The notes under the pieces: generated by a model | What the model was told of the DNA's origin: nothing | Database searches by the model: none | Seen by the model: the letters and a program-made list of their open reading frames with translations, nothing else | IMG/VR virus record: IMGVR_UViG_3300045988_176666 | Length of the DNA stretch: 38,953 bases | Reading direction: 5' to 3' (one strand) | Source: a virus | Translations under genes and position numbers: made by a program | Part shown: one piece after another, positions 13,079 to 38,953 of the stretch | How the letters are laid out: the number at the start of each line of letters is the position of its first letter | Position numbering within the stretch: the first letter of the stretch is position 1

Positions 13079-13080
13079 AG

Positions 13081-13186: not shown

Positions 13187-13203
13187 TGTTGATACCATCA
13201 ACA
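13187..13203. promoter_or_regulatory. Inverted pair TGTTGATAC-C-ATCAACA: third and fourth copies of the GTATCAACA-type site on the other side of the core
   Basis: TGTTGATAC (13187-13195) is the reverse complement of GTATCAACA; it is followed by catcaaca. Confidence 0.4.
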
Positions 13204-13379
13204 GGCCATTTTTCTACCACTGTAACAAACTGTAACGTACTCAAATTTACTCCAATTTCTTAAAAATGTCAGGGGATGCAAAAAATCCGCCCCGGAAATC
13301 TCCGTGCGGACAGCGGGTGCGGGCTCGGCGGTGAGCCTGATATTTAGTTATGGGGTGAGTGATAGATACCCGCGCTAGG

Positions 13380-13682
13380 CTATATCTCGTTTTCGATGAT
13401 CGCGTTAGCCTGCACCTCAGCTATGGCGGCATTAGTCTTAGCCTCTGCCACTCTGATAATGGTTGTTGGGTCCACCTCTATAGCTTTGCAGATGAGGTCG
13501 AGCTCCAGCACTGTGATTGGCTTCTGGCCCCTGTAGATAGCTCGGCTTATCTTATCCTTGTTGATTCCGGTAATCTCCTCCAGCTCCCGCGTGGTGTACC
13601 CACACTCGTGAATCCAATTCTTTAACTCTTCGTGAAGAAAAACTGTAAAAAGTTTTGCCTGGTCAGCTATATTTTCTAACAT
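13380..13682 (-). CDS. CI-like repressor, XRE-family HTH, no peptidase S24 domain
   Basis: The track ORF was trimmed to the Met at 13682 (MLENIADQ..., 100 aa). HTH is YTTRELEEITGINKDKISRAIYRGQ. It is divergent from a second HTH gene, with palindromic operators in between. Confidence 0.7.
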   Translation of the reverse strand: MLENIADQAKLFTVFLHEELKNWIHECGYTTRELEEITGINKDKISRAIYRGQKPITVLELDLICKAIEVDPTTIIRVAEAKTNAAIAEVQANAIIENEI

Positions 13683-13690
13683 GGTACATA

Positions 13691-13710
13691 CCGTATCAGA
13701 GATGATACGG
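13691..13710. promoter_or_regulatory. Operator O1: ccGTATCA-gaga-TGATACgg
   Basis: Perfect 8+8 inverted repeat with a 4-nt spacer in the cI/cro intergenic region. Confidence 0.65.
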
Positions 13711-13722
13711 AGATGCAACGAC

Positions 13723-13752
13723 TTGACATGTATCATTTTTGATACATAGAAT
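13723..13752 (+). promoter_or_regulatory. Rightward early promoter candidate: TTGACA-N18-TAGAAT
   Basis: TTGACA at 13723-13728 and TAGAAT at 13747-13752. Operator O2 fills the spacer. RBS aagagg and the ATG at 13782 lie downstream. Confidence 0.5.
13728..13747. promoter_or_regulatory. Operator O2: atGTATCA-tttt-TGATACat
   Basis: Perfect 8+8 inverted repeat with a 4-nt spacer, overlapping the -35/-10 spacer of the rightward promoter. Confidence 0.65.
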
Positions 13753-13781
13753 TGTTTCATCACGAAAGAAAAGAGGTGAAA

Positions 13782-14060
13782 ATGGACCAAAACTTGCGCA
13801 TCGCAGAAAACATTAAATTAGCGATGATCCGCTCACGTCTCACAATGGGAGAGCTTGAGTCATTTATGCGACTAGAGCTAGGAATTAACCGCAATCGCAC
13901 TAGTGGCATAGCAAATGCGAGGGTATCCGCAACGTCAGAGGAAATCTACGCAATTGCAAAGTTTTTTGAAACTACTGTGGAATGGATGCAGGCAGAGCAC
14001 CTAGCAGAAATCCCCGCCCAAAGAGATACACTGTCTCGCGGAAATCTACAAGCAGTATAA
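13782..14060 (+). CDS. Cro-like XRE-family HTH regulator
   Basis: The track ORF was trimmed to the ATG at 13782 (RBS aagaggtg). 92 aa: IKLAMIRSRLTMGELESFMRLELGINRNRTSGIANAR. First gene of the rightward operon. Confidence 0.65.
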   Translation: MDQNLRIAENIKLAMIRSRLTMGELESFMRLELGINRNRTSGIANARVSATSEEIYAIAKFFETTVEWMQAEHLAEIPAQRDTLSRGNLQAV

Positions 14061-17859: not shown

Positions 17860-18236
17860 TCGTAGAACCAAAAATGGTGCTTAGAGTAGTCGTTCGTGGA
17901 AATGAGATAACTCACGAAGGAACGTTCACAGACTATACAGCATACCTGGTCGGCAAGGACGATAACGCAGTACTGGCAGAGGCAACATGGCGAACAGCGC
18001 TTTTGCTCAAAGGATTCTTAGTGAAGGAACTGAGCGTACACCTGCCTAGCATGACAGTTTTACCGCAAGAAGTCCTACATGGCCGGGTCTGGGAATTCTC
18101 ATGCAGGGGCCTACGGTCAATGTCTCGCAAGGTAGCTGAGGAAATAGCCAGAACATGGAATCGCACCTATTGGGGATTGGCCAGGATCGACCAAGACGCA
18201 ATAGAAATACACCAACCACTAGTACCCATAAGGTAG
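17856..18236 (+). CDS. Hypothetical protein (126 aa)
   Basis: The track ORF 17709..18236 was trimmed to the in-frame GTG at 17856 (GTGA overlap; ggagg/gggag upstream). Confidence 0.45.
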   Translation: MIVEPKMVLRVVVRGNEITHEGTFTDYTAYLVGKDDNAVLAEATWRTALLLKGFLVKELSVHLPSMTVLPQEVLHGRVWEFSCRGLRSMSRKVAEEIARTWNRTYWGLARIDQDAIEIHQPLVPIR

Positions 18237-18245
18237 GAGACGACG

Positions 18246-18647
18246 ATGAAAAAATACTATGCACCTATCGAAGGCGCAAAACTGGAGCACATAGTACGCG
18301 ATCTGCCCTTCACTCTCGGCAACGTCCTGAAATACGTTTGGCGGGCACCCTATAAAGGTGGGGCAGAAGATTGTATAAAGGCGTTGGATTACCTGCTGAT
18401 ATTCCAAAAGGCACCCCGTAAGTACAACCTGACTAAAACCGCGCAGGACGCAATTCACAATATTCTAGTAACTTTCCCAGACGGTGATTCAGAAGAGACT
18501 GAAGACATTCACCGCTGTGCAGCACGACAGACATTAGCTTTCATCAATAACAGCGAAGACAAAGTAGACAACGAAGAGTTGGGGGAAGCTAAAGACAGAA
18601 TTATTAGGTTACTTATCGGTATGCACGATGTAGAAAGCAGTAGATAA
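18246..18647 (+). CDS. DUF3310-like phage protein
   Basis: GNVLKYVWRAPYKGGAEDCIKALDYL matches the conserved G-N-x-x-K-Y-x-x-R...K...ED..KA..Y core of DUF3310. Confidence 0.55.
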   Translation: MKKYYAPIEGAKLEHIVRDLPFTLGNVLKYVWRAPYKGGAEDCIKALDYLLIFQKAPRKYNLTKTAQDAIHNILVTFPDGDSEETEDIHRCAARQTLAFINNSEDKVDNEELGEAKDRIIRLLIGMHDVESSR

Positions 18648-18823
18648 TGTTGGCCGCAATAATTATTGTCACAGCAATTATGATCATCCTGTGTTTTTCT
18701 GCAGCAGTAGGTATCGCCTGCTACGCGATATTCAAATACACCCTGTACAGAACCCGCCTACAAATCGGAAAAGACCCCCGCACAGGAAAATGGATAAACC
18801 TACCAACCGAAAGGACAAAATAG
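18647..18823 (+). CDS. Small membrane protein (58 aa)
   Basis: MLAAIIIVTAIMIILCFSAAVGIACYAIFKY... Not in the ORF track. TAATG overlap upstream. Confidence 0.4.
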   Translation: MLAAIIIVTAIMIILCFSAAVGIACYAIFKYTLYRTRLQIGKDPRTGKWINLPTERTK

Positions 18824-19362
18824 TGGAAAACGTAAATAACCGCCTCCAAGACATGCGAGACGCGCTGGAAGAGATACAGGAAGTTGAGAAAAGGCTAAAT
18901 CTGAACGGCGAAATCTCAAATGCAGTGCAGGGAATCATAATTGACGCAACGAATATGTTCAACAAAGAGATAGATAAGATAGTCTCCGAAGCAGAAGATA
19001 TTCAAGAAGAGCTGCACCGAGCCAAAGAGTATCTAGAAAATAATCCCGAAACAGCCCTAGTCTCAATCTCCCGCGCATACAAAAAAGTAACGAATATAGC
19101 CCTCACCGAAAAAATCAGGGACGACGGCGCTCGCTACATCTTCACCCCTGAACAAGAAGAAGAATCTGAAAAATCTCAGATTGATCAGATACTAGACGAC
19201 CTCGCCAAAAACCTTGAGACCATCGGAGCTATAGCATCCCACGCACCCGAAGACAAGAAGAAATTCTTAACCGATGTACACCAAGACGCTAGTGACTGCA
19301 TCGCAGCACTGCCAGGCTGGATAGAGGCGGAAATTAAAAAGGCAAAGGGGACAGGGAAATAA
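18790..19362 (+). CDS. Acidic coiled-coil protein
   Basis: The track ORF was trimmed to the ATG at 18790; the GTG at 18823 is an alternative start. Glu/Asp-rich helical sequence. Confidence 0.5.
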   Translation: MDKPTNRKDKIVENVNNRLQDMRDALEEIQEVEKRLNLNGEISNAVQGIIIDATNMFNKEIDKIVSEAEDIQEELHRAKEYLENNPETALVSISRAYKKVTNIALTEKIRDDGARYIFTPEQEEESEKSQIDQILDDLAKNLETIGAIASHAPEDKKKFLTDVHQDASDCIAALPGWIEAEIKKAKGTGK

Positions 19363-19610
19363 TGACACATGGGCAAAAAGTAAGGAACTGGATACTAAAA
19401 GCATTTGAAAAAGAGTATCCAGACATGGAGCTAATTAGCTATACAGCTGAAAAACATAAAATATTCAGCAGCTACAACGTTGTTATCAAAGCCGAAGGTG
19501 CGACGGAAAATACGGTAGTACACATGAGCATATATCCTGATAACCCTAGAGGCGTTGAATATCAAATTGATAAAGAATTTCACTGTATGAAAGGAAGGGA
19601 GAGCAAATAA
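19362..19610 (+). CDS. Hypothetical protein (82 aa)
   Basis: TAATG coupling at both ends. Confidence 0.5.
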   Translation: MTHGQKVRNWILKAFEKEYPDMELISYTAEKHKIFSSYNVVIKAEGATENTVVHMSIYPDNPRGVEYQIDKEFHCMKGRESK

Positions 19611-19888
19611 TGCTTTCAGAAATATATCTTGCAAAAGAAATCCAGAAAAAAGCTGACATGCTCGAAGAAGCAGCTGAGGATAAAAACACTGAGGAAATGG
19701 AAATTGAGCTAATAGCACACGACATTTCCATTAGCGGAGAACTTCTATCTGCGAAGTTGGAATTAATATCTGAACAGCTTGGTTTAGCAGCACTCCTGCT
19801 GGAATCCGCAGAAAAACTAGAAGACCCTGATCTGCTGAAAAGAATTATTGTCGCAGTCTCAAGAATCTTTGGAAGGATTAATAAGTAG
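19610..19888 (+). CDS. Small acidic helical protein (92 aa)
   Basis: About 19 Asp/Glu versus about 11 Lys/Arg; lies immediately upstream of the methylase. Confidence 0.5.
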   Translation: MLSEIYLAKEIQKKADMLEEAAEDKNTEEMEIELIAHDISISGELLSAKLELISEQLGLAALLLESAEKLEDPDLLKRIIVAVSRIFGRINK

Positions 19889-19889
19889 C

Positions 19890-20393
19890 ATGTTTCCACA
19901 GCGAGGTAACAGCGGTGACGTGTGGCTTACCCCCCCCCATATCACTAAACAGCTAGGGCCATTTGATTTAGACCCATGCGCACCATTACAAAACCCACAC
20001 TGGATAGGTGCAGACAAACACTTCACCGAGCAGCACGACGGGCTGTTGCAGCCGTGGGAGGGGCGCGTATGGCTAAACCCGCCATATGGTCGAGGGATAG
20101 AGAAGTGGCTAGAGAAAATGGCACTCCATGTCGAGGCGGGCGGTTCAGGAATAGCTTTGATCTTCGCCCGCACGGACACAGCAGCATGGCAAGAACATAT
20201 CTTCCCTGTTGCAGATAGCATCTACTGGATTCGTGGTCGCCTCAAATTCTACAGACCAGACGGAACCCCCGGCGATCATCCAGCTGGGGCACCATCCGCT
20301 CTCATCGCCTACACATACAAAGACACTGATTATTTGCACGGCATACGAGGCAAAATCCCAGGAGCAATGACCATCAACGCATATGAAAACTGA
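19890..20393 (+). CDS. Phage-type DNA N6-adenine methyltransferase (Dam family)
   Basis: The track ORF was trimmed to the ATG at 19890. DVWLTPPHI...FDLDPCA...WLNPPYGRGIEKWLEKM...ALIFARTDTAAWQ...IRGRLKF follows the phage Dam (PF05869-type) layout with the NPPY catalytic motif. Confidence 0.8.
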   Translation: MFPQRGNSGDVWLTPPHITKQLGPFDLDPCAPLQNPHWIGADKHFTEQHDGLLQPWEGRVWLNPPYGRGIEKWLEKMALHVEAGGSGIALIFARTDTAAWQEHIFPVADSIYWIRGRLKFYRPDGTPGDHPAGAPSALIAYTYKDTDYLHGIRGKIPGAMTINAYEN

Positions 20394-22409: not shown

Positions 22410-24014
22410 ATGCCGTGGCTTAAAGTCTCAGATACCGCGATGCAGAACAGCATCGTGCGCCGCGCATTAGACCTCCCACACGCTAATGCCGAGTACGTAT
22501 ACACGCTATTCGGCGTCATGCTCGGATGTGCTGTCGAAGCCGCAGCCCTAAAAGCCGATTACGTGATCGAGCGGAACTCCATTGCAGCGAAAGTTGGATT
22601 AGACCGCTGCGACCAAATCATCCAAGACGCCATTACATGCGGGTACATCACCCATGAAGTGCAACTAAAAAACGGAATTCGCGCATACAAACTCGTCGAG
22701 GATGAAGACCTCTTCCACATGCGCCTCAAGAGCGAGATTGACTGGGAAAATCGCCGCCGCAACGATACCCGCAGTAAATCCCTTATTGTTCCTATCCGTG
22801 TGCGCGACGGCGACGCCTGCCGATGGTGCGGCCGCGTCGTGTATTGGGGAGACCAAAAATCAGCACGCGGCGGAACATATGACCACCTGCACCCTACGCA
22901 GCCTGCAGAGAAAGCTAGTGACATGGTTGTCGCTTGCCGCTCCTGCAACTCAGCGCGTAAGGATAATACCGAATGGGGCGGAAAGCTGTTGCCGCCTCCG
23001 TCTAAGCCCTACTACGGGCGAAAGACCGTCGAGTTTCTGGCAGAGAACGACGTAATTGTCGCTCTATCTCCAGAAAGTGAAAAACCCACTGTGCCCGCTG
23101 CGCAATTTCTGCAGTCAGGGTTGGCAGCTGGAGAACCTGAGGGGTCGAAGAACCCGCAGGGGGAAGACGGTGTGGTGTGTGCGATCACTGAGGAGGCATC
23201 CTCGGTTCGATCCCGCCAAACTGAAAATTCCCTTGTGTTGAGTGCTCCCCCGAACGGCGAATCAGCTGTGAATCGCACTCAGAGAGAGCCTGCGGAAAGT
23301 GGGAACGCCACCACCGATTCAGAAAAACAAATTATTTCTGAATGGTTAGCCGATTTGGACCAGCAGAAACGGGACGCCGAAGAAGCAACCGCCAAGGAAG
23401 CGCCGCCGAGAGCTCAGGATGAGGGGGACGCCCCACACCCCGAACAATCGGACCGGGATAGTTGGCACCCCGCATATCGGATACCTGATGAAACAGTACC
23501 AGATGCGACCCCGCAGGGGGAAGACGGTGTGGTGTGTGCGATCACTGAGGAGGCATCCTCGGTTCGATCCCGCCAAACTGAAAATTCCACTACGGTTGAT
23601 GTCCCTGAATCTGTTTCATCAGGTGCCCGATGTAAACGTCGCCGGAAACGGCGGCGTATAAGACAGAAAGACCCCGCCGCGCCTGTCTCACCTATTGGAA
23701 TGAGTCAGCACTCCGAATTACTCCGAATTCCTCCCAATCCGCAGGGTGACGGATACGGATGTGCCGGGTCGGGTCGGGACGGTACCGAAACCAAAACCCA
23801 AGGTGACATATCGTTACCTCCTGTTGCTGCGCCTGAAAATCCTCCCAATTCCTCCGAATTACTCCGAATTCCTCCCAATCCGCAGGGTGACGGATACGGA
23901 TGTGCCGGGTCGGGTCGGGACGGTACCGCAACCAAAAACATAACTAGCTCTTCTCGAAAACGCAGGAGAGGTAAGAGGAAAGGAAAAGTAAGTAATGCGT
24001 GCAGCACAGTTTAG
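22410..24014 (+). CDS. HNH-motif protein with N-terminal putative DNA-binding domain and long repetitive, disordered C-terminal half; candidate replication initiator/organiser
   Basis: 534 aa. HNH/zinc motif CRWCGRVVYWGD...YDHLHP...VVACRSCNSARKDN. The C-terminal half is acidic with two poly-basic patches (CKRRRKRRRIRQK, RKRRRGKRKGK) and two pairs of exact repeats. Confidence 0.6.
   Translation: MPWLKVSDTAMQNSIVRRALDLPHANAEYVYTLFGVMLGCAVEAAALKADYVIERNSIAAKVGLDRCDQIIQDAITCGYITHEVQLKNGIRAYKLVEDEDLFHMRLKSEIDWENRRRNDTRSKSLIVPIRVRDGDACRWCGRVVYWGDQKSARGGTYDHLHPTQPAEKASDMVVACRSCNSARKDNTEWGGKLLPPPSKPYYGRKTVEFLAENDVIVALSPESEKPTVPAAQFLQSGLAAGEPEGSKNPQGEDGVVCAITEEASSVRSRQTENSLVLSAPPNGESAVNRTQREPAESGNATTDSEKQIISEWLADLDQQKRDAEEATAKEAPPRAQDEGDAPHPEQSDRDSWHPAYRIPDETVPDATPQGEDGVVCAITEEASSVRSRQTENSTTVDVPESVSSGARCKRRRKRRRIRQKDPAAPVSPIGMSQHSELLRIPPNPQGDGYGCAGSGRDGTETKTQGDISLPPVAAPENPPNSSELLRIPPNPQGDGYGCAGSGRDGTATKNITSSSRKRRRGKRKGKVSNACSTV
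23153..23231 (+). repeat. Repeat R1 copy a (79 nt)
   Basis: Identical at 79/79 positions to 23510-23588; encodes PQGEDGVVCAITEEASSVRSRQTENS. Confidence 0.95.
23510..23588 (+). repeat. Repeat R1 copy b (79 nt)
   Basis: Exact copy of 23153-23231, offset by 357 nt (in frame). Confidence 0.95.
23711..23787 (+). repeat. Repeat R2 copy a (77 nt)
   Basis: Identical at 77/77 positions to 23852-23928; encodes SELLRIPPNPQGDGYGCAGSGRDGT. Contains internal ctccgaatt x2 and gggtc x2 sub-repeats. Confidence 0.95.
23852..23928 (+). repeat. Repeat R2 copy b (77 nt)
   Basis: Exact copy of 23711-23787, offset by 141 nt (in frame). Confidence 0.95.
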
Positions 24015-24033
24015 GAAGACTCAAGCACGAGAT

Positions 24034-24351
24034 ATGTCTGAGTCAGTCTTCCAATCAAAAGTTATCAGTATGGCTAAGTCTTTGGGTTGGGAGCATTACC
24101 ACACTCATGACTCCCGCCGGTCTGTCGCCGGATTTCCTGATCTTGTGCTCGTGCATCCGCAAAAGGGGTGGATTATCTATCGAGAGCTCAAGACTGAAAC
24201 GGGCAGGGTATCTCAAGCGCAATGGCACTGGGTAGGCATGTTGCGAGCATGCAGACAGGACGTTGACGTGTGGAGGCCGTCAGGTTTATTGGATGGTTCC
24301 ATCTTGCGTGACTTGAGCGCCGGACTTGGAGCCAAAGGAAAGAGTGAATAG
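24034..24351 (+). CDS. VRR-NUC domain nuclease
   Basis: The track ORF was trimmed to the ATG at 24034 (no overlap with the upstream gene). SESVFQSKVISMAKSLGW...GFPDLVLVHP...IYRELKTETGRVSQAQWHW follows the VRR-NUC (PD-(D/E)xK) pattern. Confidence 0.7.
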   Translation: MSESVFQSKVISMAKSLGWEHYHTHDSRRSVAGFPDLVLVHPQKGWIIYRELKTETGRVSQAQWHWVGMLRACRQDVDVWRPSGLLDGSILRDLSAGLGAKGKSE

Positions 24352-26066: not shown

Positions 26067-27718
26067 ACCAAACCAAACTGCCACCCCGTGAACGAACCCA
26101 CCTCTTACCTCCAAACATCCCGAAGCTGTCCTTAGGATGGGGCGTAGCAGCATGGATGATGGAAAACCTCATACAGCCCAATGGCCCAAAGGCGGGTCAG
26201 CCGTTCACACCGACAGATGGGCAGGTAGAGTTCCTACTCCACTTCTACGCCGTCAATGAGAATGGGGAATGGCTCTACTCGCATGCTGCCCGCCGTCTCG
26301 CTAAAGGCTCTGGCAAATCCCCCTTCGCTGCAGCTGTGGCGCTCGCCGAGCTCTGCGGGCCGGTGCGCGTGGATAAGATAAACAAAGACCACCCCAAGCC
26401 TTGGATGCGTGTTATTGGAAAGCCAATGAGCATGCCACTTGTGCAGATCGCCGCAACCTCAGAGGCACAGACACTAAACACTATGCGTATGGTTCGCGCA
26501 TTCGCCGGAAAACGTAGCAAGCTCGCAAAAAAATACGGGCTTGAGACAGGCAAAACACAGGTTGAGACACCCGAGGGCGGCTTGCTCATGCAGATTACCG
26601 CCTCAAGCTCATCAGCAGAAGGTGCGGAAGCATCTTTCGTTGTAGCCGATGAGACCGAGCACTGGCTGCCCGGCGGCGGCGGCCCCGCAATGGCCGAAAC
26701 ACTACGTCAGAACCTTGTGAAAACCGGCGGCCGTATGATGGAGACATCCAACGCATGGGTGCCCGGCGTAGGCTCCGTAGCAGAAGCGACCTTCAACGAC
26801 TGGTGCGACCAGGAAGAGGGCAAGCTCATTAAAGAGACCAAAATTCTTTATGATGCTCGCATTGCCCCGCATAACACATCTCTAACTGACAAGCCTGATG
26901 AGGGCCAAATAAGCCTCACCGAAGCACTAGAGTATGTCTATGCGGATTGCCCTTGGGCGGTACTGCGATCCATCAAAGAGCAAATCTGGACGCCGAGCTA
27001 CCCGGTATCACGCTCCAGAAGATTTTTCCTCAACCAGCCGAACGCTGTAGATACCGCATGGGTAACCGTGCAGCAGTGGTCACAGCTTGCAGACCCAGAA
27101 CGTGAGCTGATTGACGGTGAGGAAGTCGTGCTGTTCTTCGACGGCTCTAAATCAAACGACCACACCGCACTCGTGGGATGCTGCATGCAAGACGGACATG
27201 TTTTCACAATTGGCGTGTGGGCACCGGATGAAAAAACCGGTGTGATTGACGCAGACGCCGTTGACGCGGCCGTCGCAAGAACCTTTGACCGCTTCGAGGT
27301 GATCGCCTTCTTCGCAGACGTCCGAGAGTGGGAATCCTACGTGAAGAAATCATGGCCAGACACCTATAAAGAAAAGCTGTTGCTCTGGGCCGTACCGAGC
27401 GGAAAAGCGAAATCCCCCATCGCATGGGATATGCGCTCGCACGGGTACGAATTTGCAGAAGCAGCGGAAATGTGCCATGCAGAAATCATCGACAAGGGAT
27501 TCACACATGACGGAAACTGGGAAACCTCAAAACATATTGGAAACGCCCGCGCAACGGAATCACGCGGCCGCATCACCATTAAAAAAGAGTCTCCCAAATC
27601 GCCCAATAAGATTGACGCGGCCGTCTGCGTCATTGGCGCTCGCATGGTCTACCGCGCCGTTCTAGCGTCCAAGCAATGGGAAGAACGAAACAACACAGCA
27701 GAATTTATCGTCTGGTAG
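26039..27718 (+). CDS. terL: Terminase large subunit
   Basis: 559 aa. Walker A-like RRLAKGSGKSPFAAA, Walker B/catalytic FVVADETEHW, and a C-terminal RNase H-like nuclease half (VLFFDGSKSNDHTAL...IDAAV). Confidence 0.9.
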   Translation: MGTEIQGHLDQTKLPPRERTHLLPPNIPKLSLGWGVAAWMMENLIQPNGPKAGQPFTPTDGQVEFLLHFYAVNENGEWLYSHAARRLAKGSGKSPFAAAVALAELCGPVRVDKINKDHPKPWMRVIGKPMSMPLVQIAATSEAQTLNTMRMVRAFAGKRSKLAKKYGLETGKTQVETPEGGLLMQITASSSSAEGAEASFVVADETEHWLPGGGGPAMAETLRQNLVKTGGRMMETSNAWVPGVGSVAEATFNDWCDQEEGKLIKETKILYDARIAPHNTSLTDKPDEGQISLTEALEYVYADCPWAVLRSIKEQIWTPSYPVSRSRRFFLNQPNAVDTAWVTVQQWSQLADPERELIDGEEVVLFFDGSKSNDHTALVGCCMQDGHVFTIGVWAPDEKTGVIDADAVDAAVARTFDRFEVIAFFADVREWESYVKKSWPDTYKEKLLLWAVPSGKAKSPIAWDMRSHGYEFAEAAEMCHAEIIDKGFTHDGNWETSKHIGNARATESRGRITIKKESPKSPNKIDAAVCVIGARMVYRAVLASKQWEERNNTAEFIVW

Positions 27719-27726
27719 GAGGTGCA

Positions 27727-28992
27727 ATGTCCTTAGAAAAACTGGCTAAAAAGCTGACCCCATCCGCAGAATATGCCAAATGGGAAGCATACTACGCCGA
27801 TAAACACCGCCTCGACGCAATCGGCATATCACTACCCCCAGAAACGCGAGTACTCGAACTCATAGTATCCTGGCCCGCGCTCGCTGTTGATGTGCTCGAC
27901 GAAGTTCTGAATATTGAGGGATTTTCACTCTCTTCTGACGCCGAAGTGCCAAAGACACTGTGGAATTGGTGGCAGCGCAATAATTTAGACACGCTCAGCT
28001 CCCAGATTCACACTGAGGCGCTTATTCAAGGTATATCCTACATTGTGATAGGCGGCCGTGACGATAAAACCCCTCGATTCACCGGGCATACCGCCAAGGA
28101 AATAGTTGTCGATACCAACAGCAACGGTGAAATTAGCGAAGCGCTGCAAAAGTACCGTGTCAATGGCAAAGATTATTTGGCACACTACGTTCCCGGCTTT
28201 GTGAATTTCTATGAGGGCACGCGATACGGGATGACTCTCATATCCTCTGGAGAGACCAACACGAACTATATTCCAGTGGTGCCAGTCGTCAATCGCGGCG
28301 CACTGAAAACCAGGAATACCGTAGGTGTCTCTGAAATGAAAGGCGTCGTAGGGTACACCGATGCAGCGTCCCGCTCCATCACAAACCTGCAGGTCGCCCA
28401 GGAAATTCTCGCCATGCCGCAACGCTACCTATTCGGTAACGGGCTTGAAACCCTCAAAGGTCCAGACGGGCAGCCAAAGACCAAGCTAGAGGCATACATG
28501 GGTCTACTCTGGACTGGCCCCGCAGGCTCAACCGCAGGGCAGCTACCCGGCGCGGACCTATCGCAGATCATTAACTCTGTGAAAATGTACGCGCAAATGG
28601 TCAGCTCAGTTGCAGGAATCCCGCCGTCATTCCTCGGCATCTCAACAGACAACCCAGCGTCCGCCGAAGCAATGCGCGCCGCAAAAGAACGCCTCATCAC
28701 GAAGGCAGAAAGAAAGCAAGCAGCCTTCGGCGACGCCTGGGAACAAGCAATGCGCATCGCCCTAGACATGTTCGGCCACCACATCGACGAAGCAGACACC
28801 CTAGAGGTGCTGTGGCGCGACCCCGCCACCCCCTCACAGTCTGCCAAAGCAGCAAACATGCTCCAGGCGCACGCCCAAGGCGTCATCAGTGCAAAAACAG
28901 CCCGCGAAGGACTGCCTCTCACCCCCGAACAACGCGCCTACGAAGACGCCAACCAAGGCGCAGGAGGTGAACTCTTCAAGGAGGTCTTCTAA
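27727..28992 (+). CDS. Portal protein (SPP1 gp6-like)
   Basis: The track ORF was trimmed to the ATG at 27727 (aggagg upstream). 421 aa, immediately after terL. Typical portal size and acidic/helical C-terminus. Confidence 0.8.
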   Translation: MSLEKLAKKLTPSAEYAKWEAYYADKHRLDAIGISLPPETRVLELIVSWPALAVDVLDEVLNIEGFSLSSDAEVPKTLWNWWQRNNLDTLSSQIHTEALIQGISYIVIGGRDDKTPRFTGHTAKEIVVDTNSNGEISEALQKYRVNGKDYLAHYVPGFVNFYEGTRYGMTLISSGETNTNYIPVVPVVNRGALKTRNTVGVSEMKGVVGYTDAASRSITNLQVAQEILAMPQRYLFGNGLETLKGPDGQPKTKLEAYMGLLWTGPAGSTAGQLPGADLSQIINSVKMYAQMVSSVAGIPPSFLGISTDNPASAEAMRAAKERLITKAERKQAAFGDAWEQAMRIALDMFGHHIDEADTLEVLWRDPATPSQSAKAANMLQAHAQGVISAKTAREGLPLTPEQRAYEDANQGAGGELFKEVF

Positions 28993-30644
28993 TGCCAGAC
29001 ATTCAGGACCCCCTCGAAGAATCATTCCAGGCATACCTCGCCGCGCTCGCCAAAATGCAGAAGGGATTTCTGCGCGAGCTGTTCCGCATCATCCAGGCGG
29101 GATACCAGGAAGCAGACAAAGAGGGCACAATCGAGTCACTAGTGTCTCCCCTGGTATCCCTCGTGCGCGATTACCGCAAACGTGCACACGGGTACACCGC
29201 AAACTTCTTGATGGAGCAAGCGGAGATAAACGGTGCAGGACAGCCTGTGATTGCTCCCGATGCTGTAGGGTACTCCGAAACAGCAGTACGTACTGTGCTG
29301 CACAGCAAAATGCGTGTGAATGCGATGGAAACATGGGTGGCGACCGCTGGCACTTTTGCCCGTGCAGTCAATAATGTCACCCGTGAGACCGTTATCGCCT
29401 CATCTGAGATGACGGCCGCGCAACACCCGGCCGCCTTCAAAGAGATTCAGATAGAAGACCTCGATACACTCGCAGATGAGCTCGGCGAGGAGAACTTTTC
29501 GGCATCCGACGCCTGGGATGATCTGGTACTCCAAGCAGACGAAGCTGAGGCGCGTAAAAAACTGGATGAGCTGCGCCCCGATGATGCAGATAGCCGCACC
29601 GAATGGGACGGCATCGAATCCCGCGAAGGTGTCTATAAGAAGATTCTGACCGGTGATTACGACGACCAGGGGAACCCTCGGAAGCCCTTCGCCTGGGCAC
29701 GTGTCCTGGTGGGCGCACAAAACTGTCACTTCTGTATAATGCTGGCAGCCCGTGGACCCGCATACGCCACCAAGGACTCAGCACTATTCCGCAAAAGCAA
29801 GGGTAAGAAGAACGCAAATTCGCCTATCTCACGCCTGCGGAACGAAATTGACCGGGCACGATCCGCCAAGGGAAAACAGCGTTTTCACGACTTCTGCGAC
29901 TGCGAAGTCGTGCCCGTGTTCAACCGTGAGAGCTGGCCTGGCAAACAACAGTATGAAGCTGCCCGCCAAATGTGGGAGGCAGCCCAAGACGAAGCAGACA
30001 GGCACAACACGGAGGCTATCGCCACCGCAAGGCTCAAATCGGAACTAACAGGCAAAAAAGTTAAACCAGACACCACGGACACGGTAACAGTCCTGAAACG
30101 CTACGCTGGGACGTTCAAGCATCGTGGATGGTCACTGGATTTCGACCCGCTCAAACCTGAGAATCCACAGGATGACGGGTGGGAGATGAAAAATTGGCAG
30201 TGGCGGCCGCCCGCAACTGGAGACCCTATCACCCGGTCGAACTTGATTAGGCATCGTCTAACAGATAGCGATAAAAAACATATCTGGAATGGAGAAGCTG
30301 ATAAGCGCAAGGGCGGGCACCACCCCGGCGCAAATCGCCCTAACAAAACCGAATTCCCCGCCAACTGGAGTAAAAATGAAGCGCTCCATAATGTGCAGCG
30401 TACCATCGATTCACCAGATATTGTGCACACCAGCGGAGACGCCGTAGAACACTACAAACTAATCGACGGCGTAGTCCTAAAGGCGAAATTCAGAGAGACC
30501 TCAGAAGGTAGCGAATTTATTACAGCCTTTCCAGACCGTGGACGTGGGGTTTATGCTAATCTGCTTGATACAGGGATAAAGCTCAGAGCGCCACTCGTGA
30601 CGCCTGGAGAGTACAAGAACGGGACATGGCATGAAATTGTCTAA
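28992..30644 (+). CDS. MuF/SPP1 gp7-like minor head protein fused to a C-terminal EndoU-like nuclease (toxin) domain
   Basis: 550 aa. MuF core ends with NCHFCIMLAARGP...RFHDFCDCEVVP (about aa 240-310). After a ~110-aa linker, the C-terminus has KKHIWNGEADKRKGGHHPGANRPNKTEFPANWSKNEALHNV...FITAFP, resembling the EndoU H-x-x-x-G-E / G-G-H-H / K-x-x-F-P-x-x-W signature. Confidence 0.65.
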   Translation: MPDIQDPLEESFQAYLAALAKMQKGFLRELFRIIQAGYQEADKEGTIESLVSPLVSLVRDYRKRAHGYTANFLMEQAEINGAGQPVIAPDAVGYSETAVRTVLHSKMRVNAMETWVATAGTFARAVNNVTRETVIASSEMTAAQHPAAFKEIQIEDLDTLADELGEENFSASDAWDDLVLQADEAEARKKLDELRPDDADSRTEWDGIESREGVYKKILTGDYDDQGNPRKPFAWARVLVGAQNCHFCIMLAARGPAYATKDSALFRKSKGKKNANSPISRLRNEIDRARSAKGKQRFHDFCDCEVVPVFNRESWPGKQQYEAARQMWEAAQDEADRHNTEAIATARLKSELTGKKVKPDTTDTVTVLKRYAGTFKHRGWSLDFDPLKPENPQDDGWEMKNWQWRPPATGDPITRSNLIRHRLTDSDKKHIWNGEADKRKGGHHPGANRPNKTEFPANWSKNEALHNVQRTIDSPDIVHTSGDAVEHYKLIDGVVLKAKFRETSEGSEFITAFPDRGRGVYANLLDTGIKLRAPLVTPGEYKNGTWHEIV

Positions 30645-31011
30645 GACAGACCTAAAATATGGTCTATCCGCCGCCACCAGCTTCAACCAAGCGCTGCAAG
30701 AGATACCACAAAACAGCGCAATGCTAGGAGGTTCAGGTGCAGGTGAGGAAGAGGACGCAATATTTCATCTCGACCAGCTGCGGACACACCCAAATATCAA
30801 AGTGCCAGCAGAAGAGTACGTAAATTTTGCGCACCTATTCCGTTTAGATTGGTCTAATAAAGCTGACGCATACGACCGCATGGCGACACAGGCGATCAGA
30901 GACATAAACAGCCGCCCGTACATCCAAGCAGAGTATGAGCGTCAGGGATTGCCGCCCGTAGACGGCCCAGAATCATACATCCTACTCGACAGACTAAACA
31001 AAGCAGCATAA
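30631..31011 (+). CDS. Hypothetical protein (126 aa), candidate immunity/neutralising partner of the EndoU-like domain
   Basis: Overlaps the MuF-toxin stop by 14 nt and is followed by an intrinsic terminator. It is an extra gene relative to the usual portal-MuF-scaffold-capsid order. No recognisable motif. Confidence 0.4.
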   Translation: MKLSKTDLKYGLSAATSFNQALQEIPQNSAMLGGSGAGEEEDAIFHLDQLRTHPNIKVPAEEYVNFAHLFRLDWSNKADAYDRMATQAIRDINSRPYIQAEYERQGLPPVDGPESYILLDRLNKAA

Positions 31012-31026
31012 CAATAAACGAAAAAA

Positions 31027-31055
31027 GGGAGCACCTGCCAGGTGCTCCCTTTTCT
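31027..31055 (+). terminator. Intrinsic terminator
   Basis: gggagcacct-gcc-aggtgctccc followed by ttttct; an A-run precedes it. Confidence 0.7.
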
Positions 31056-31078
31056 CATGCCCAAATTCAGGAGGAAAC

Positions 31079-31687
31079 GTGCCGAAGCCAGACGAACAGA
31101 AAAGTCTCGACGAAAAGATTAGCGACCAGGAAGAAAACGTCGAAGAGAACGCCGAAGCCACCGACCAGCAGTCACCGTGGGAGAAGAACGGCGAAGAATT
31201 CGATGCTGAACGCGCCGCAAAACTGATCCAGAACCTACGCGCCGAGCTCTCCGCCGCCAAAGCCAAGAACAAGGAAGCCGCACCAAGCGACGAACAAGAG
31301 GCAGAAGGCACAGAACCACAGGAAGCGGAAGAAACCCCCGCAGAAGAGCCAGCAGCAGCCAAGGAAGAGGAACCAGAGCTGCCGCAGCCCACACCGGAAC
31401 AACCCACGGAAGACATGGCAGCCCTCAAAGCCCAGCTAGTCGAAACAGAGCTCAAGCTCACCAAGACCCTAGCGCTCGCAGAGGCCGGGCTGTCCCTAGA
31501 TTTGCTCCCATACGTGCCAGGTAGCACGGAAGAAGAGATAAAGACCTCGATAGAGTTTCTGCTTAGCAAGTTCAACGAGGCGCGCTCCAGCTCACGCAGG
31601 CCGCCCTCTGTGAATCCTGCCCAGGTTAGCAGGGACCCCGCCGAGGACCCGAAAGAAAGCGCCGCCCGCGCCTTCTTCGGAATGTAA
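31079..31687 (+). CDS. Scaffolding protein
   Basis: 202 aa, GTG start after caggagga. Very acidic, Ala/Glu/Pro-rich and helical. Lies directly upstream of the major capsid gene. Confidence 0.6.
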   Translation: MPKPDEQKSLDEKISDQEENVEENAEATDQQSPWEKNGEEFDAERAAKLIQNLRAELSAAKAKNKEAAPSDEQEAEGTEPQEAEETPAEEPAAAKEEEPELPQPTPEQPTEDMAALKAQLVETELKLTKTLALAEAGLSLDLLPYVPGSTEEEIKTSIEFLLSKFNEARSSSRRPPSVNPAQVSRDPAEDPKESAARAFFGM

Positions 31688-31758: not shown

Positions 31759-32694
31759 ATGGCAGCAAACGCTACTACGTTTGAATCGCTCGTGCAGAAT
31801 GGCCTCATGCCTAAGCCTATAGCGCAGGAGATCATTCAGAAAGTTACTCAGGACTCCGTTGTGCGAAAGCTCGCGGGCACTACCCCCATGCCCATCACCG
31901 GCTCGACTATCGCGGTGCAGACCGGGCAGCCGCAGGCAGGCATTGTTGGTGCTGGCCAGCAGAAGCCGGTATCGAATATGACTGTCGCAACCAAGACTGT
32001 TAAGCCCATCAAGGCAGCCGTGATTGTCTACTGGGATAAAGAGTCTCGTATGGCGAACCCGGCCGGATACATTGACGTGCTCCAGGAGCAGGCAGCAGGG
32101 GCTCTTACCCGTGCCTTCGACCTGGCAATTCTGCACGGTAAGGACGCTCTGAGCGGTCAGGAAATCGCAGGTGTGGATTTCGTCAATAAGACCACCAAGC
32201 GCGTTGAGCTTGGCACCGCGAAGAAAGACGCAGGCGGTGTGGGTGCAGACCTGCTCGCCGGTTACGACCTAGTTGTGAACGACGCAGACCACCTGTGGAA
32301 CTTTGACGGCTTCGCAGCAGACGATACCCTGCGTACTCGCCTCATGATGCAGACCGATACCCTCGGCCGCCCCCTCTACACTAACAACCTGACTGACGCT
32401 ATGGGCACCATTCACGGCCTGCCCACCGCATACGGCCGCTCCGTAGGCGGAAAGATCGGCGCTGCACCTGATTCTAAAGTTCGCGCATTCGGCGGCGACT
32501 GGAGCCAGCTCAAGTACGGCTTCGCCGAAGACATCACCTTCCGCACCACCGATACCGCAACCATTGTTGACGGCTCCGAGACTGTGAACCTGTGGCAGCG
32601 CAACATGGAAGCATTCCTCGTAGAAGCAATTTTTGGATGGGTCATCACCGACACATCCGCATTCGTAGCATACGACGATAAGGTGGCGGGTTAA
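31759..32694 (+). CDS. Major capsid protein (HK97-fold)
   Basis: 311 aa. Position after the scaffold, plus typical size and composition. No prohead protease gene is present (SPP1-like head module). Confidence 0.8.
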   Translation: MAANATTFESLVQNGLMPKPIAQEIIQKVTQDSVVRKLAGTTPMPITGSTIAVQTGQPQAGIVGAGQQKPVSNMTVATKTVKPIKAAVIVYWDKESRMANPAGYIDVLQEQAAGALTRAFDLAILHGKDALSGQEIAGVDFVNKTTKRVELGTAKKDAGGVGADLLAGYDLVVNDADHLWNFDGFAADDTLRTRLMMQTDTLGRPLYTNNLTDAMGTIHGLPTAYGRSVGGKIGAAPDSKVRAFGGDWSQLKYGFAEDITFRTTDTATIVDGSETVNLWQRNMEAFLVEAIFGWVITDTSAFVAYDDKVAG

Positions 32695-35500: not shown

Positions 35501-35868
35501 AAGCGCTCCGCAAGACCTGCAACGAATACCCAATGCTTGACGCCGAGCTTTTCATGCTCGGCGTCAAGGTTGAAGACCTCAACACGCAGCAGGAAGTCAA
35601 CCGCACCTACGCACTTGTGGAGCGCCTAAAACACGACCACACGTCACTCTGGAGAGCCGAAATCCTCGGAAACAAGAGCCTCTACGGATGGGGACCAGGC
35701 GAATATATCGCCGCCGCGCAGCTCAACGCCCAAAACACCGAACTAAAAGGCAAAAAGCTGTCAAAGAACGAAATGGTCAACATCCCACAACCAGAGCGAC
35801 AGAAGAAACACATCGAAAAAGCTACCGCATCAGACATGCACAACTTTTTCAGCTCCCTAACACACTAA
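35135..35868 (+). CDS. Tail assembly chaperone, predicted -1 frameshift fusion product (G-T-like)
   Basis: The -1 frame is open from 35323 to 35868. The G frame ends ...ctc atg ggg gaa tag, giving a G5 run (35490-35494) just before the stop as a candidate slip site. Confidence 0.45.
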
Positions 35869-35883
35869 GGAAGGCACGCGGCT

Positions 35884-38800
35884 ATGGCACTCGGACGTAT
35901 TAGCATCAAGGTATTTCCTGACACCTCAAAATTCAGGACAGACCTAAAAACCGCGCTAAACCGCATCGAACGCAACACACGCGGTACCGTGCAAATAATC
36001 CCCGTCATAGACCGCGAAGCCCTCGCCCGCCTCAAAAATAACCTAAGCCGTCTCAACGCAACCGCAAAAGTGCGTGTAGACGCAGACACCGCCGCAGCAT
36101 CCCGCCGCCTCTCCGACATCGCACGCGGCCGCAAAGCAACCGTAGAAGCAGACCTCGACACCAAAGCCGCAACCGAACAGCTCAAAACGCTTTTCAACCA
36201 CAAAAACCTTGTAGTCAACGTCGAACCCGAAACCACCGGTGCCCGCCGCGCTCTCACCGCCCTAACCCGCGCTCTCACCGCACCCATAACCGCCGAAGTC
36301 GAAACAGCGAAAGCAGCAGCACGCCTCGCCGAGCTATCCGCCCGCCGATCCACCCCCATCAACGCCAACGCAGACACCGCCAAGGCAAAGCACGACCTAG
36401 ACGACCTCGCAAAAGAACGCGAGGCAACCATCAACGCAGATGCAGACACAGGAAAAGCAGCCGTCGCGCTCGCTATCCTGCAACGCACCCGCACCGTCGA
36501 CATCGTGCCAAAGGTAAACGCTTCTGCTCTGGCCGCTGCCCAAACAGCGCTAGGTAGTCTCTCCGGCGGCCGCACCCTGAATAATCTCAAGACTGGGATT
36601 ATTGACGTCACTAAAAACATTGACACCCTAACTCCCAGGGTATCGGGACTCGCAATAGCCGGTGCTGGGCTATCAGCAGCCATGATCACCCTAACGGGCA
36701 ACGTCCTATCCCTCGGCGCAGGACTTATCGCTGTAGCCCCCGCCGCCCTCGCGCTCCCTGGCCTCTTCCTCGGAGCCGCCGCCGGTGCTGGAACTCTCAT
36801 CACTGTGCTGGCCGATACGGGCAAATACCTTGGCGACCTGAAACCAGCATTTGAAGACCTCAAAAACACGATGTCTGGCAATTTCTGGTCACAGGCAGAG
36901 GCCCCGCTGCGGCATATGGTCGAAACCCTGCTGCCTACCCTCAGTAAGGGGCTAGGCGAAATCGCGCTGCAATTCACGGACTGGGCACGCGCCGCAGATA
37001 ACGCCGTATCCGGCTCCATCGGCTCCTTCGACGTCATCTTCCAGAACGTAGCAGACGCCGTGAACATCGCCGGAGAAGGTGTAGCCAGCTTCATCTCTGG
37101 AATGATAAAGCTCTCTGAAATCGGCGCATCGGCTCTCCCGTCCATCGCCGAGAAATTCAACCAGATAGCCGAATCGTTCAACGAATGGGCGCAATCTGAC
37201 GCCGCCGTGCAAGCATTCAACGCAGCAATAGAGACAGCCAAAGACCTGTTCCGAATAATTCAACAGGTCATTGGCATTTTTGCTGCGCTAGGCTCTGCAG
37301 CCCAAGAAGCCGGAGGCTCTACCCTCTCCGGCCTCGCCGATGGGCTCGCAGCAGTGAACCGGGCCATGTCAACCGTCGAAGGCCACCAGGCGCTCGTGGA
37401 TTTATTCAAATCTGCAGGCCAGGCCGTCGACAACATGAAGCCCGGCCTGACAGAACTAGCAACCTCCCTGCCTTCCCTCGGCTCTTCCCTCGGCTCCGCC
37501 ATGCAGTCCGCAGGATCGGCCATTAGCTCCCTAGCCTCCGGCCTCGCTAAGCTCCTGGCAGACCCCGCCGTCTCCAACGGCATCAAAAGCCTTTTTGACG
37601 GCATCCGCCAAGGCGCAGATGCACTCGGACAGTCACTCCCAGCGCTCGCGCCTGCGATTGGCTCGCTAACCTCCACGTTTGGGCAAATGGCGGCGACGCT
37701 AGGGCCTGTGGTGGGTGAGGCTATCAAGCAGCTTGCCCCGCTTTTTGCGCAGATTCTCCAGGCAGTCCAGCCGCTTATTCCGGTGCTGGGAAACCTGCTG
37801 ATTTCGGTACTGCAGGCGATTGTGCCTGTGATTACGCCGATTATTTCTGCTGTGGCGGATTGGGTGAAGCAAAATCCTGAGCTCGCGGCCACGATTATTA
37901 CTGTGGTAGCCGTGCTCGCGGGAATTATCGCAATACTGATCCAAGTTGTCGTAGCTATCGCCCCGGTTGTGGAGGCTATCGCAGCCCTAGTTGGCGTGTT
38001 CGGTGGTATGGCCGTCGCTATTGGCGGCGGTATAGCAGCCGTTGTCGCTATTGTGGTGGCCCTCCTGGCCGGGCTTGTAGTCCTAATCGTGATGAACTGG
38101 GACAACATAGTCAGTTTCACAACAGATGCATGGAACAACATTGTCTCGTTCCTGACTGACGTGTGGAACAACATTGTCTCCATCGCAACAACAGTGTGGA
38201 ACGGCATTGTCGAATTTTTTACGGGCCTGTGGAACGGCATTGTTGACCTCTTCAACGCCTATATGACGGCGCTCACAACAAACTGGACGAATGCCTGGAA
38301 CGCGGTATCACAATTTGTTACCGAAATCTGGAACAGCATTGTCGAGGGAGTAACAAACTTCCTAACGCCAATCGTCGACGCCTTCATGAACGCCTGGAAC
38401 GGGCTCGTGCAGTTCCTAACGGAGGTTGGGCAAAACTTCCTCATCGCCATTGTTGCGATAGGAATTCTGCTCTATGAGGGAATAGTTGCACTAATGCAAC
38501 CGGTCATCGCATTCTTCACGACAGCTTGGAACAGCCTCGTGCAGATCGTAACCGATGTCTGGAATCAGATAGTCGCCTCAGTAACCGCATTCCTAGCCCC
38601 CATCATTCAAACACTGAATGATATATGGAACCAGATTGTGCAAGGCGTAACTGCATTCCTGACGCCCATCATCCAATTTGTCACGAACACCTGGAACCAG
38701 ATAGTCAGCGCCATATCAACGGCAATGAACACAGCCTGGAGCGTCATTTCCTCCATTTGGAACCAGATAACCGGGTTTATCTCATCCGTGCTGAGTAGTA

Positions 38801-38953
38801 TTTTCAGCACAATCTCTTCCAGCTGGAACAGCATTGTCTCCACAGTCAGGAGCGCACTCAGCGCCATTTGGTCTGTTGTCTCCTCCATTTGGAACCAGAT
38901 AACCGGGTTTATCTCATCCGTGCTGAGTAGTATTTTCAGCACAATCTCTTCCA
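35884..38953 (+). CDS. Tape measure protein, N-terminal 1,023 codons (runs off the window end and continues at 1..681)
   Basis: Not in the ORF track because there is no stop before the window end. I read frame 1 from the ATG at 35884 (RBS aaggaagg) to 38953 and found no stop. It has N-terminal A-D-x-D-T-x-x-A repeats, two long hydrophobic segments and then W-N-x-I-V repeats. Confidence 0.9.
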   Translation, partial: MALGRISIKVFPDTSKFRTDLKTALNRIERNTRGTVQIIPVIDREALARLKNNLSRLNATAKVRVDADTAAASRRLSDIARGRKATVEADLDTKAATEQLKTLFNHKNLVVNVEPETTGARRALTALTRALTAPITAEVETAKAAARLAELSARRSTPINANADTAKAKHDLDDLAKEREATINADADTGKAAVALAILQRTRTVDIVPKVNASALAAAQTALGSLSGGRTLNNLKTGIIDVTKNIDTLTPRVSGLAIAGAGLSAAMITLTGNVLSLGAGLIAVAPAALALPGLFLGAAAGAGTLITVLADTGKYLGDLKPAFEDLKNTMSGNFWSQAEAPLRHMVETLLPTLSKGLGEIALQFTDWARAADNAVSGSIGSFDVIFQNVADAVNIAGEGVASFISGMIKLSEIGASALPSIAEKFNQIAESFNEWAQSDAAVQAFNAAIETAKDLFRIIQQVIGIFAALGSAAQEAGGSTLSGLADGLAAVNRAMSTVEGHQALVDLFKSAGQAVDNMKPGLTELATSLPSLGSSLGSAMQSAGSAISSLASGLAKLLADPAVSNGIKSLFDGIRQGADALGQSLPALAPAIGSLTSTFGQMAATLGPVVGEAIKQLAPLFAQILQAVQPLIPVLGNLLISVLQAIVPVITPIISAVADWVKQNPELAATIITVVAVLAGIIAILIQVVVAIAPVVEAIAALVGVFGGMAVAIGGGIAAVVAIVVALLAGLVVLIVMNWDNIVSFTTDAWNNIVSFLTDVWNNIVSIATTVWNGIVEFFTGLWNGIVDLFNAYMTALTTNWTNAWNAVSQFVTEIWNSIVEGVTNFLTPIVDAFMNAWNGLVQFLTEVGQNFLIAIVAIGILLYEGIVALMQPVIAFFTTAWNSLVQIVTDVWNQIVASVTAFLAPIIQTLNDIWNQIVQGVTAFLTPIIQFVTNTWNQIVSAISTAMNTAWSVISSIWNQITGFISSVLSSIFSTISSSWNSIVSTVRSALSAIWSVVSSIWNQITGFISSVLSSIFSTISS
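38749..38953 (+). repeat. 132-nt-period tandem repeat inside TMP (38749-38843 versus 38881-38953 continuing at 56-77)
   Basis: 73 nt are identical within the window (38749-38821 = 38881-38953). The match continues across the junction with one mismatch (g38822 vs t56). Confidence 0.9.

Follow-up and report, generated by a model that had tools for sequence, protein, structure and literature searches.

The viral record IMGVR_UViG_3300045988_176666 of IMG/VR (38,953 nucleotides (nt); the whole stretch is called the window, and coordinates throughout are positions in it) carries, directly behind its portal gene, a gene in which a phage head protein of the MuF4/VG15 branch is fused to a tail related to EndoU ribonucleases (RNases). 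Next come a small ORF (open reading frame) and a terminator-like hairpin. We suggest that the product of the fusion gene belongs to the MuF polymorphic toxins and that its carrier is a temperate siphophage; the EndoU RNase would be packaged and injected, with the small protein as its neutralizing partner. We consider this interpretation likely as a whole. The locus consists of the following genes and features (aa, amino acids):

27676..28992, plus strand: portal gene (Pfam SPP1_portal, PF05133, E 1.8e-31)
28992..30644, plus strand: MuF4/VG15-EndoU fusion gene, 550 aa, a single uninterrupted ORF (ORF list, Pfam)
28992..29981, plus strand: N-terminal head-protein region, aa 1-330
29682..29981, plus strand: VG15/MuF4 core, aa 231-330 (Pfam VG15, PF25310)
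29982..30266, plus strand: linker, aa 331-425 (~95 aa), poorly conserved, no family match
30267..30596, plus strand: compact EndoU_bacteria RNase domain, aa ~426-535 (PF14436)
30279..30281, 30318..30320 and 30345..30350, plus strand: predicted catalytic set H430, H443 and K452-T453
30522..30533, plus strand: T511-A-F-P514 motif
30631..31011, plus strand: candidate cognate immunity gene, 126 aa (ORF list)
~31020..31056, plus strand: GC-rich hairpin, terminator-like (scan, fold)
31079..31687, plus strand: scaffold gene (DUF4355, E 1.2e-4, below cut-off)
31759..32694, plus strand: major capsid gene, HK97-type (Phage_capsid, PF05065, E 6e-15)

Genes for the large and small terminase lie upstream of the portal gene, and the ATG of the fusion gene overlaps the portal stop codon by 1 nt. 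The initial annotation had placed an ORF at 28992-30644 after the portal gene, and it is found exactly there, with 550 aa. The architecture proposed at that time (portal, MuF-type protein, EndoU tail, dedicated small gene and hairpin) holds in sequence analysis.

The C-terminal EndoU domain

About 220 aa of the fusion protein extend past the VG15 core. In full length, the protein matches EndoU_bacteria (PF14436) with 29.0 bits; for its C-terminal 141 aa the score rises to 34.2 bits (E 3.7e-8), at a curated cut-off of 25.3 bits; the resemblance to EndoU-like RNases pointed out in the initial annotation is thus above chance. All residues of the EndoU and Cys/His motifs quoted there could be located in the translation, those of the EndoU part being H430, G441-G442-H443-H444, K452-T453-E-F455-P456, W459 and I510-T511-A512-F513-P514. 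Two details needed correction. Firstly, the spacers given as x6 and x8 are x5 (ADKRK) and x7 (PGANRPN). Secondly, the domain was said to start at nt ~30230, and its conserved part begins near 30279 (H430).

A profile of the domain and three phage homologues found 442 proteins at E<=1e-3. Among the matches listed (at least 120), nearly all bear PF14436, including RHS- and HINT-linked toxins. In an alignment of 63 sequences, G442, H443, P456 and W459 are invariant and H430, K452, E454, F455, P475 and P514 nearly invariant, and the signature residues are invariant or near so in an alignment of four homologues as well. The Tox-EndoU pattern of Zhang et al. 2012 consists of H, H, [ST], FP and [STD] (PMC3482391); the same order is found here in H430, H443, (K452)T453, F455-P456 and T511. 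H430, H443, K452/T453, FP and TAFP are kept in the window, in a relative from a second lineage (locus L011), in a prophage remnant from a Rothia chromosome and in four further phage lineages. Comparison of the domain with the second-lineage relative gave proportions of nonsynonymous (pN) and synonymous (pS) differences of 0.25 and 0.69. Since synonymous sites have reached saturation between these lineages, dN/dS was dropped, and just the relation pN < pS is used.

We read the C-terminal part as a reduced, compact version of the EndoU_bacteria domain. An AlphaFold2 (AF2) model of aa 400-550, built from the 63-sequence alignment, has a mean predicted local distance difference test (pLDDT) score of 82, with core blocks above 90. 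It comprises a helix bearing H430, the GGHH loop, a second helix and an antiparallel meander of 4-5 strands. The modelled helix and antiparallel meander correspond to the layout described for, and expected of, the BECR core. Residues 400-420 of the preceding linker are predicted to be disordered (pLDDT ~45-51), and aa 331-410 are 42% identical to the second-lineage relative, compared with 66-71% for the flanking domains.

The N-terminal head-protein part

The core of the N-terminal part matches VG15 (PF25310) with 72 bits (E 1e-19, cut-off 26). Its Cys/His motifs, C245-x-x-C248 at 29724..29735 and H299-x-x-C302-x-C304 at 29886..29903, form columns that are invariant in five relatives, and a match to phrog_193 spans aa 11-347 of the fusion protein. 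Jamet et al. 2017 distinguished four MuF families, of which MuF4 was seeded with gp4 of mycobacteriophage Angel and tied to MuF1 by comparison of hidden Markov models (HMMs) (PMC5576092). VG15 matches Angel gp4 strongly (E 5e-32), and BLASTP of aa 1-250 of this seed against the fusion protein aligned the CxxC...HxxCxC core (E 6e-5). Because the MuF4 seed is a VG15 protein and aligns to this core, we assign the N-terminal part to the MuF4/VG15 branch.

The label "capsid maturation protease", attached to PHROG 193 and to relatives in GenBank, was not adopted here, since no protease domain was detectable in the fusion protein or in Angel gp4. The same annotation, borne by VG15/MuF4 proteins of mycobacteriophages in their hundreds, seems to follow gene position and not evidence.

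The small ORF and the hairpin

The small ORF starts 14 nt inside the fusion gene, and the overlap (30631..30644, ATGAAATTGTCTAA) is identical in the second-lineage relative, at 62% protein identity. The dedicated downstream gene of the initial annotation, 30631..31011, is real and conserved. Its product is acidic, with an isoelectric point (pI) of 5.1 against 8.9 for the EndoU domain, and the AF2 model (pLDDT 78.5) is an all-alpha bundle of six helices. In the comparison with L011, pN (0.39) is again below pS (0.64). When 1.84 billion representative proteins were scanned exhaustively with HMMER, only ~5 true relatives of the small ORF emerged; a homologue stands directly after this EndoU subfamily in four of five contexts, one of which is a stand-alone EndoU pair in a remnant of a Rothia chromosome. 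Judged by its position the small ORF is immunity-like, and it matches none of the known immunity families (Imm-Barstar, CdiI-STECO31).

Directly after its stop codon and ahead of the scaffold gene stands a hairpin, which closes the pair of toxin and small ORF. The terminator of the initial annotation thus corresponds to a real structure at ~31020..31056, with a folding free energy of -25.4 kcal/mol and a z-score of -4.5 (0 of 200 shuffles were as stable). An A-run precedes it and a U-rich tail follows (UUUUCUCAU). Hairpins of other sequence occupy the equivalent position in L011, in phages Juicebox, Ewald and Dogfish and in Rhodococcus rhodnii.

The position of the hairpin is kept in six lineages and the stem sequences differ; the sites are 31020..31062 in the window, 4570..4612 in locus L001, 7740..7782 in L017 and 7737..7767 in L011. 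Further, a 12-mer TTTCT(C/T)ATGCCC follows the hairpin in the window lineage, in Juicebox and in R. rhodnii, once per locus and just there; 0.3 chance matches are expected in the window at <=1 mismatch. Conservation of this tail is unexpected, because the proteins are just ~25% identical.

Relatives and recurrence of the module

Copies 98-100% identical to the window are present in IMG/VR and ENA/Logan. Contig names of the IMG/VR series 7000000xxx and 33000xxxxx presumably indicate human microbiome samples. The second lineage (IMG/VR and ENA/Logan; L011) encodes a MuF-EndoU protein of 548 aa and a downstream ORF of 129 aa, and the full-length VG15-EndoU architecture is found in 99% and 62% relatives alike. 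Between the two lineages, the large terminase is 83%, the portal 84% and the capsid protein 87% identical. The whole MuF-EndoU protein reaches 63% (linker 42%, EndoU domain 66%), the small ORF 44% and the scaffold 52%. The fusion protein and the small ORF therefore diverge faster than the portal, terminase and capsid genes.

The order of portal, VG15-EndoU gene, small acidic ORF, hairpin, scaffold and capsid gene recurs in phage Juicebox (gp5/gp6), in the Gordonia phages Ewald (gp7/gp8) and Dogfish (gp6/gp7) and in prophages of R. rhodnii and R. zopfii. These modules share the EndoU signature residues with the window, and Juicebox also has the 14-nt gene overlap, whereas identity to the window is 23-32% in the EndoU domain and 25-28% overall. 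Their small ORFs (85-104 aa, pI 4.0-4.5) are not detectably homologous to the 126-aa protein. Gp5 of Corynebacterium phage Juicebox is named "EndoU domain-containing protein" in RefSeq. The VG15-EndoU fusion is rare among phages: in 50,697 phage genomes, 1,074 records match the VG15 core, and 4 were found with this EndoU tail.

The sole sequenced Rothia phage that was matched, Spartoi (L033 2872..4225), has a short MuF-like protein of 256 aa, which lacks a toxin tail; the scaffold gene comes next, with no small ORF in between. It is a natural control for the association of toxin and small ORF.

The EndoU tail was also seen on another type of carrier. In the record of Streptococcus suis phage YS34-rum (L034 1403..4527), an EndoU tail, 35% identical to that of the window, forms the end of a "cell wall protein" of 954 aa, and an ORF of 86 aa follows with an overlap of 1 nt. 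As this carrier is not a MuF protein, the tail is common to different delivery proteins.

Remnants in Rothia chromosomes

A metagenome-assembled genome of Rothia sp. (JAUNVZ010000005.1; L014 3121..6665, the same as L016) contains two degraded prophage pieces in tandem beside rpsT. In the first, a VG15 gene that is truncated at its 5' end is joined to another tail, and an acidic ORF of 95 aa and a 5' fragment of the scaffold gene come next. In the second, a stand-alone EndoU domain, 38-41% identical to that of the window, stands directly before a homologue of the small ORF (BLASTP E 6e-18), again followed by a 5' scaffold fragment. The tail of the first remnant (HILKRHGDNGTGH...SMFP) was rejected as an EndoU domain, being not detectably EndoU and without Pfam match; its pattern reads HILKRH...GTGH...SMFP. 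In two other metagenome contigs (L029/L030) the rpsT site is more decayed, with the last 30 aa of EndoU left and the small ORF frameshifted.

Two readings offer themselves for the remnants at the rpsT site: immunity cassettes may have been kept by selection, or the decay may simply follow a pattern. Hosts might keep such cassettes as protection against incoming MuF toxins, or tails of MuF toxins might be swapped as cassettes, like the orphan modules of contact-dependent inhibition (CDI) and Rhs systems.

The phage and its host

A 55-bp direct repeat is present at both ends of the window (1..55 and 38899..38953). Because of this terminal repeat, and because the tape-measure gene spans the junction, we regard the window as a complete, circularly assembled phage genome of ~38.9 kb. 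Three genes outside the module matter here:

35884..38953 and 1..681: tape-measure gene, ~1,230 aa, spanning the junction of the circular assembly
11896..12996, minus strand: tyrosine integrase (lysogeny module)
13380..13790, minus strand: HTH_26 repressor-like gene of Cro/C1-type helix-turn-helix (HTH) (lysogeny module)

The integrase, the Cro/C1-type HTH gene and an amidase endolysin encoded in the window mark the phage as temperate. Related remnants sit in Rothia chromosomes, and for this reason we assign the host to Rothia, an abundant human oral genus; the phage is most likely a temperate siphophage of this genus. That it infects an actinobacterium, as assumed in the initial annotation, is borne out by these relatives. 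Megablast of 6 kb against GenBank phages gave no match; the phage has not been sequenced from an isolate, and the nearest portal is 40% identical. A full-protein scan of the genome collection retrieved no relative; the scan with the alignment of the EndoU subfamily did find relatives.

Some other features of the genome were recorded. Long minus-strand ORFs at 35865..38255 sit inside the tape-measure gene and are probably spurious. Two proteins of the tail region (5143..8865), one Spherulin4-like (PF12138, E 5e-15) and one of 853 aa that has collagen triple-helix repeats and a pectate-lyase-like domain, probably form a glycan-degrading tail fibre or receptor-binding apparatus. A Dam-type N6-adenine methyltransferase is encoded at 19848..20393 and a VRR-NUC nuclease at 23995..24351. 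G+C content falls to 0.43-0.46 at 13000..14000 and 18000..20000, compared with ~0.55 elsewhere; most ORFs of these stretches are without family match, and they may be recently acquired early-region genes. In the whole window there are no tRNA genes and no match to any Rfam family.

Comparison with known systems

Zhang et al. 2012 named MuF as one of the routes by which Tox-EndoU is delivered (PMC3482391). Jamet et al. 2017 placed EndoU_bacteria among the MuF toxin domains and cited a MuF4-EndoU toxin of Bifidobacterium bifidum, an actinobacterium; behind the MuF toxin gene they found an ORF of <150 aa in 89% of cases, and the carriers are reported as temperate (PMC5576092). The locus resembles the MuF4 branch of these polymorphic toxins in its portal-adjacent gene, in the MuF4/VG15 N-terminus with an EndoU_bacteria extension of >100 aa, in the next ORF of <150 aa, in the temperate carrier and in the actinobacterial host. 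From these toxins, the B. bifidum case included, it differs, as far as they are described, in host genus (probably Rothia), in the longer linker (~95 aa) and in the tiny unannotated family of its small protein. MuF-EndoU toxins, an actinobacterial MuF4 case included, were thus already described in 2012 and 2017. The initial annotation, which presented an EndoU cargo in an apparently actinobacterial phage as worth follow-up, overstated the novelty in view of both papers and of the RefSeq entry for Juicebox gp5.

On the toxin side, a bacterial EndoU toxin with a solved structure is CdiA-CT(STECO31) (PDB 5HKQ), for which Michalska 2018, as far as it is reported in PMC9086364, gives the catalytic set H187, H204, K261, T262 and H321. 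Both proteins have a His-His-Lys/Thr set (H187, H204, K261-T262 and H430, H443, K452-T453, respectively). According to the same account, CdiA-CT(STECO31) is the C-terminal toxin of a delivery protein, is neutralized through an immunity gene next to its own, and is a tRNase that needs no metal. It is delivered by type V secretion, whereas the carrier in the window is a phage head protein. The His-to-Lys spacing, taken from the residue numbers reported there, is 57 residues in CdiA-CT(STECO31) and 9 in the window, which suggests that the N-terminal EndoU subdomain is much reduced in the latter. No sequence or Foldseek similarity between CdiA-CT(STECO31) and the domain of the window was detectable.

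On the carrier side, Apk2 MuF toxins with their IapK/Aph1 immunity proteins are alike in the MuF N-terminus, the C-terminal enzyme, the adjacent immunity gene(s) and the temperate phages. Their hosts, however, are Streptococcus pneumoniae, Mannheimia and Pasteurella (Firmicutes and Proteobacteria), and their activity is (p)ppApp synthesis, not RNA cleavage (PMC12226406). Of the MuF toxin classes in the cited papers, only these MuF-Apk2 toxins have been demonstrated to be toxic and to be neutralized by adjacent immunity proteins (PMC12226406). Biochemical tests of MuF proteins are confined in these papers to members with (p)ppApp-synthetase (Apk2) or ADP-ribosyltransferase (EFV) activity. SPP1 gp7 (Phage_Mu_F), which binds the portal and is present in 1-2 copies per capsid (PMC5576092), shares the portal-adjacent gene and a terminal H/N-x-C-x-C motif, the sole stretch that aligned; unlike the fusion protein, it has no toxin domain. 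All testable hallmarks of MuF4 polymorphic toxins and of Pfam EndoU_bacteria are found in the fusion gene; only direct MuF1 membership fails, and the fold comparison speaks neither for nor against the assignment.

The proposed model and its weak points

We infer packaging, injection, toxicity, immunity and RNase activity from SPP1 gp7 and other MuF toxins. The small acidic protein would, in the phase of late expression, bind the basic RNase domain and neutralize it, so that virion production is spared. The MuF part would dock on the portal, and a few copies of the fusion protein would enter the procapsid, as SPP1 gp7 does. At infection, the fusion protein would leave the capsid together with the DNA. 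The injected RNase might then cut host RNA without metal; characterized bacterial EndoU toxins are metal-independent and cut tRNA or rRNA. As a result, growth of the newly infected cell would be slowed or stopped. Possible outcomes include a bias of the lysis/lysogeny decision, blunted host responses or a handicap to non-lysogenic competitors.

Several observations weigh against this model. At the level of delivery, virion packaging and ejection of MuF toxins are themselves put forward as a hypothesis in PMC5576092 and PMC12226406. The initial annotation had described the N-terminal core as MuF/SPP1-gp7-type and had proposed HMM searches. These confirmed EndoU_bacteria and a MuF-type core in the form of MuF4/VG15, while Phage_Mu_F (PF04233) gave no match to the fusion protein even at E<=1. 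When a five-sequence N-terminal profile was compared with SPP1 gp7 by hhalign, the probability was 0.5% and nothing but the CxC motif aligned. We therefore reject direct MuF1 membership, and since the profile comparison was negative save for the terminal CxC motif, kinship to SPP1 gp7 is taken from the literature.

As for the toxin domain, the match to PF14436 covers just profile positions 48-128 of 129. The structural check proposed in the initial annotation produced a confident model, for which Foldseek against the PDB returned no significant match (best E 0.02, NTF2-like curved sheets with TM ~0.2) and did not recover the solved EndoU, Nsp15 and CdiA-CT structures; the search of viral models (BFVD) was likewise without significant match, and PDB searches with the sequence and with the 63-sequence profile gave nothing relevant. 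The model neither confirms nor contradicts the sequence assignment. We do not take the Foldseek result as a negative, because the sequence assignment is solid and the PDB searches brought up no PF14436 member.

The small ORF had no match in Pfam, PHROGs, NCBIfam or PADLOC, and Foldseek of its model against the PDB gave none either (best E 2.1). Its linkage to EndoU is confined to one related lineage, and the cases are not independent. With the small ORFs that follow other MuF-EndoU genes, BLASTP found nothing and hhalign gave a probability of 3%, and on this account a shared "...G..IPAEV..." stretch was rejected as a sign of common ancestry. Non-homologous small ORFs are common for immunity proteins; homology lends no support here. 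Further, the small ORF is part of the late operon, in which the scan recognized no promoter of its own, and protection of lysogens is thereby left unexplained. For the same reason, protection of the producer cell fits better than immunity of lysogens.

On the side of the small protein we propose, only tentatively and with more doubt than confidence, that the 126-aa all-helical protein founds an undescribed immunity family for compact EndoU toxins, that an active tRNase or rRNase is carried in the head of a Rothia phage and injected, and that the Rothia remnants are protective or exchanged cassettes.

Alternative explanations

The alternative that survives best shares the delivery mechanism of the toxin model and differs only in purpose. 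The RNase would be a packaged and injected takeover or counter-defence enzyme, not a weapon between bacteria; it would cut specific host RNAs early in favour of the programme of the phage, and the small protein would be just a safety catch in the producer cell. The placement of the small ORF in the late structural operon, its overlap with the toxin gene and the lack of a recognizable separate promoter fit such protection of virion production; influence on the lysis/lysogeny decision is one option listed by Jamet et al. 2017 (PMC5576092), and the same module occurs in lytically grown Gordonia and Corynebacterium isolates. Against it stand the rarity of the module (4 records with the EndoU tail as opposed to 1,074 with the VG15 core in 50,697 phage genomes) and its absence from Rothia phage Spartoi, which makes it dispensable for infection. 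Fast divergence of toxin and small ORF is also more typical of conflict systems. We hold the takeover role to be possible, although rather unlikely. The purpose may be competition between lysogens and non-lysogens, a lysis/lysogeny bias or host takeover.

It is also imaginable, if improbable, that the C-terminal domain is never delivered. It might be removed by proteolysis during head maturation or act in the producer cell, for example in late RNA turnover, so that the fusion serves co-expression and not packaging. The ~95-aa linker, poorly conserved and predicted to be disordered, would offer a possible processing site, and relatives are often labelled "capsid maturation protease", though no protease domain match backs the label. 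Yet no protease gene or domain was detected from portal to capsid, and phages of Rothia, Corynebacterium, Gordonia and Rhodococcus all keep the MuF fusion at just ~25% identity, which argues that the physical link matters.

It seems very improbable that the EndoU-like tail lacks catalysis or has been turned into a structural or RNA/DNA-binding extension, with the small ORF as an assembly chaperone or unrelated head accessory: the missing fold match to solved EndoU enzymes, the missing N-terminal half of the Pfam model and the lack of similarity of the small ORF to any immunity family would suit it, but all family-defining residues are kept in the window, the second-lineage relative, the Rothia remnant and four phage lineages, and pN lies well below pS, while it is just these residues that usually decay once activity is lost.

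Taken together, the polymorphic toxin reading places the locus in a computationally defined class, for which the ride in the capsid and the injection are still a hypothesis in the cited MuF papers. The window supplies a candidate for a new immunity protein and leaves the picture of such modules unchanged. With a complete phage genome from an oral genus, a clean module and close natural variants, it would lend itself to testing the RNase branch of the MuF toxins.

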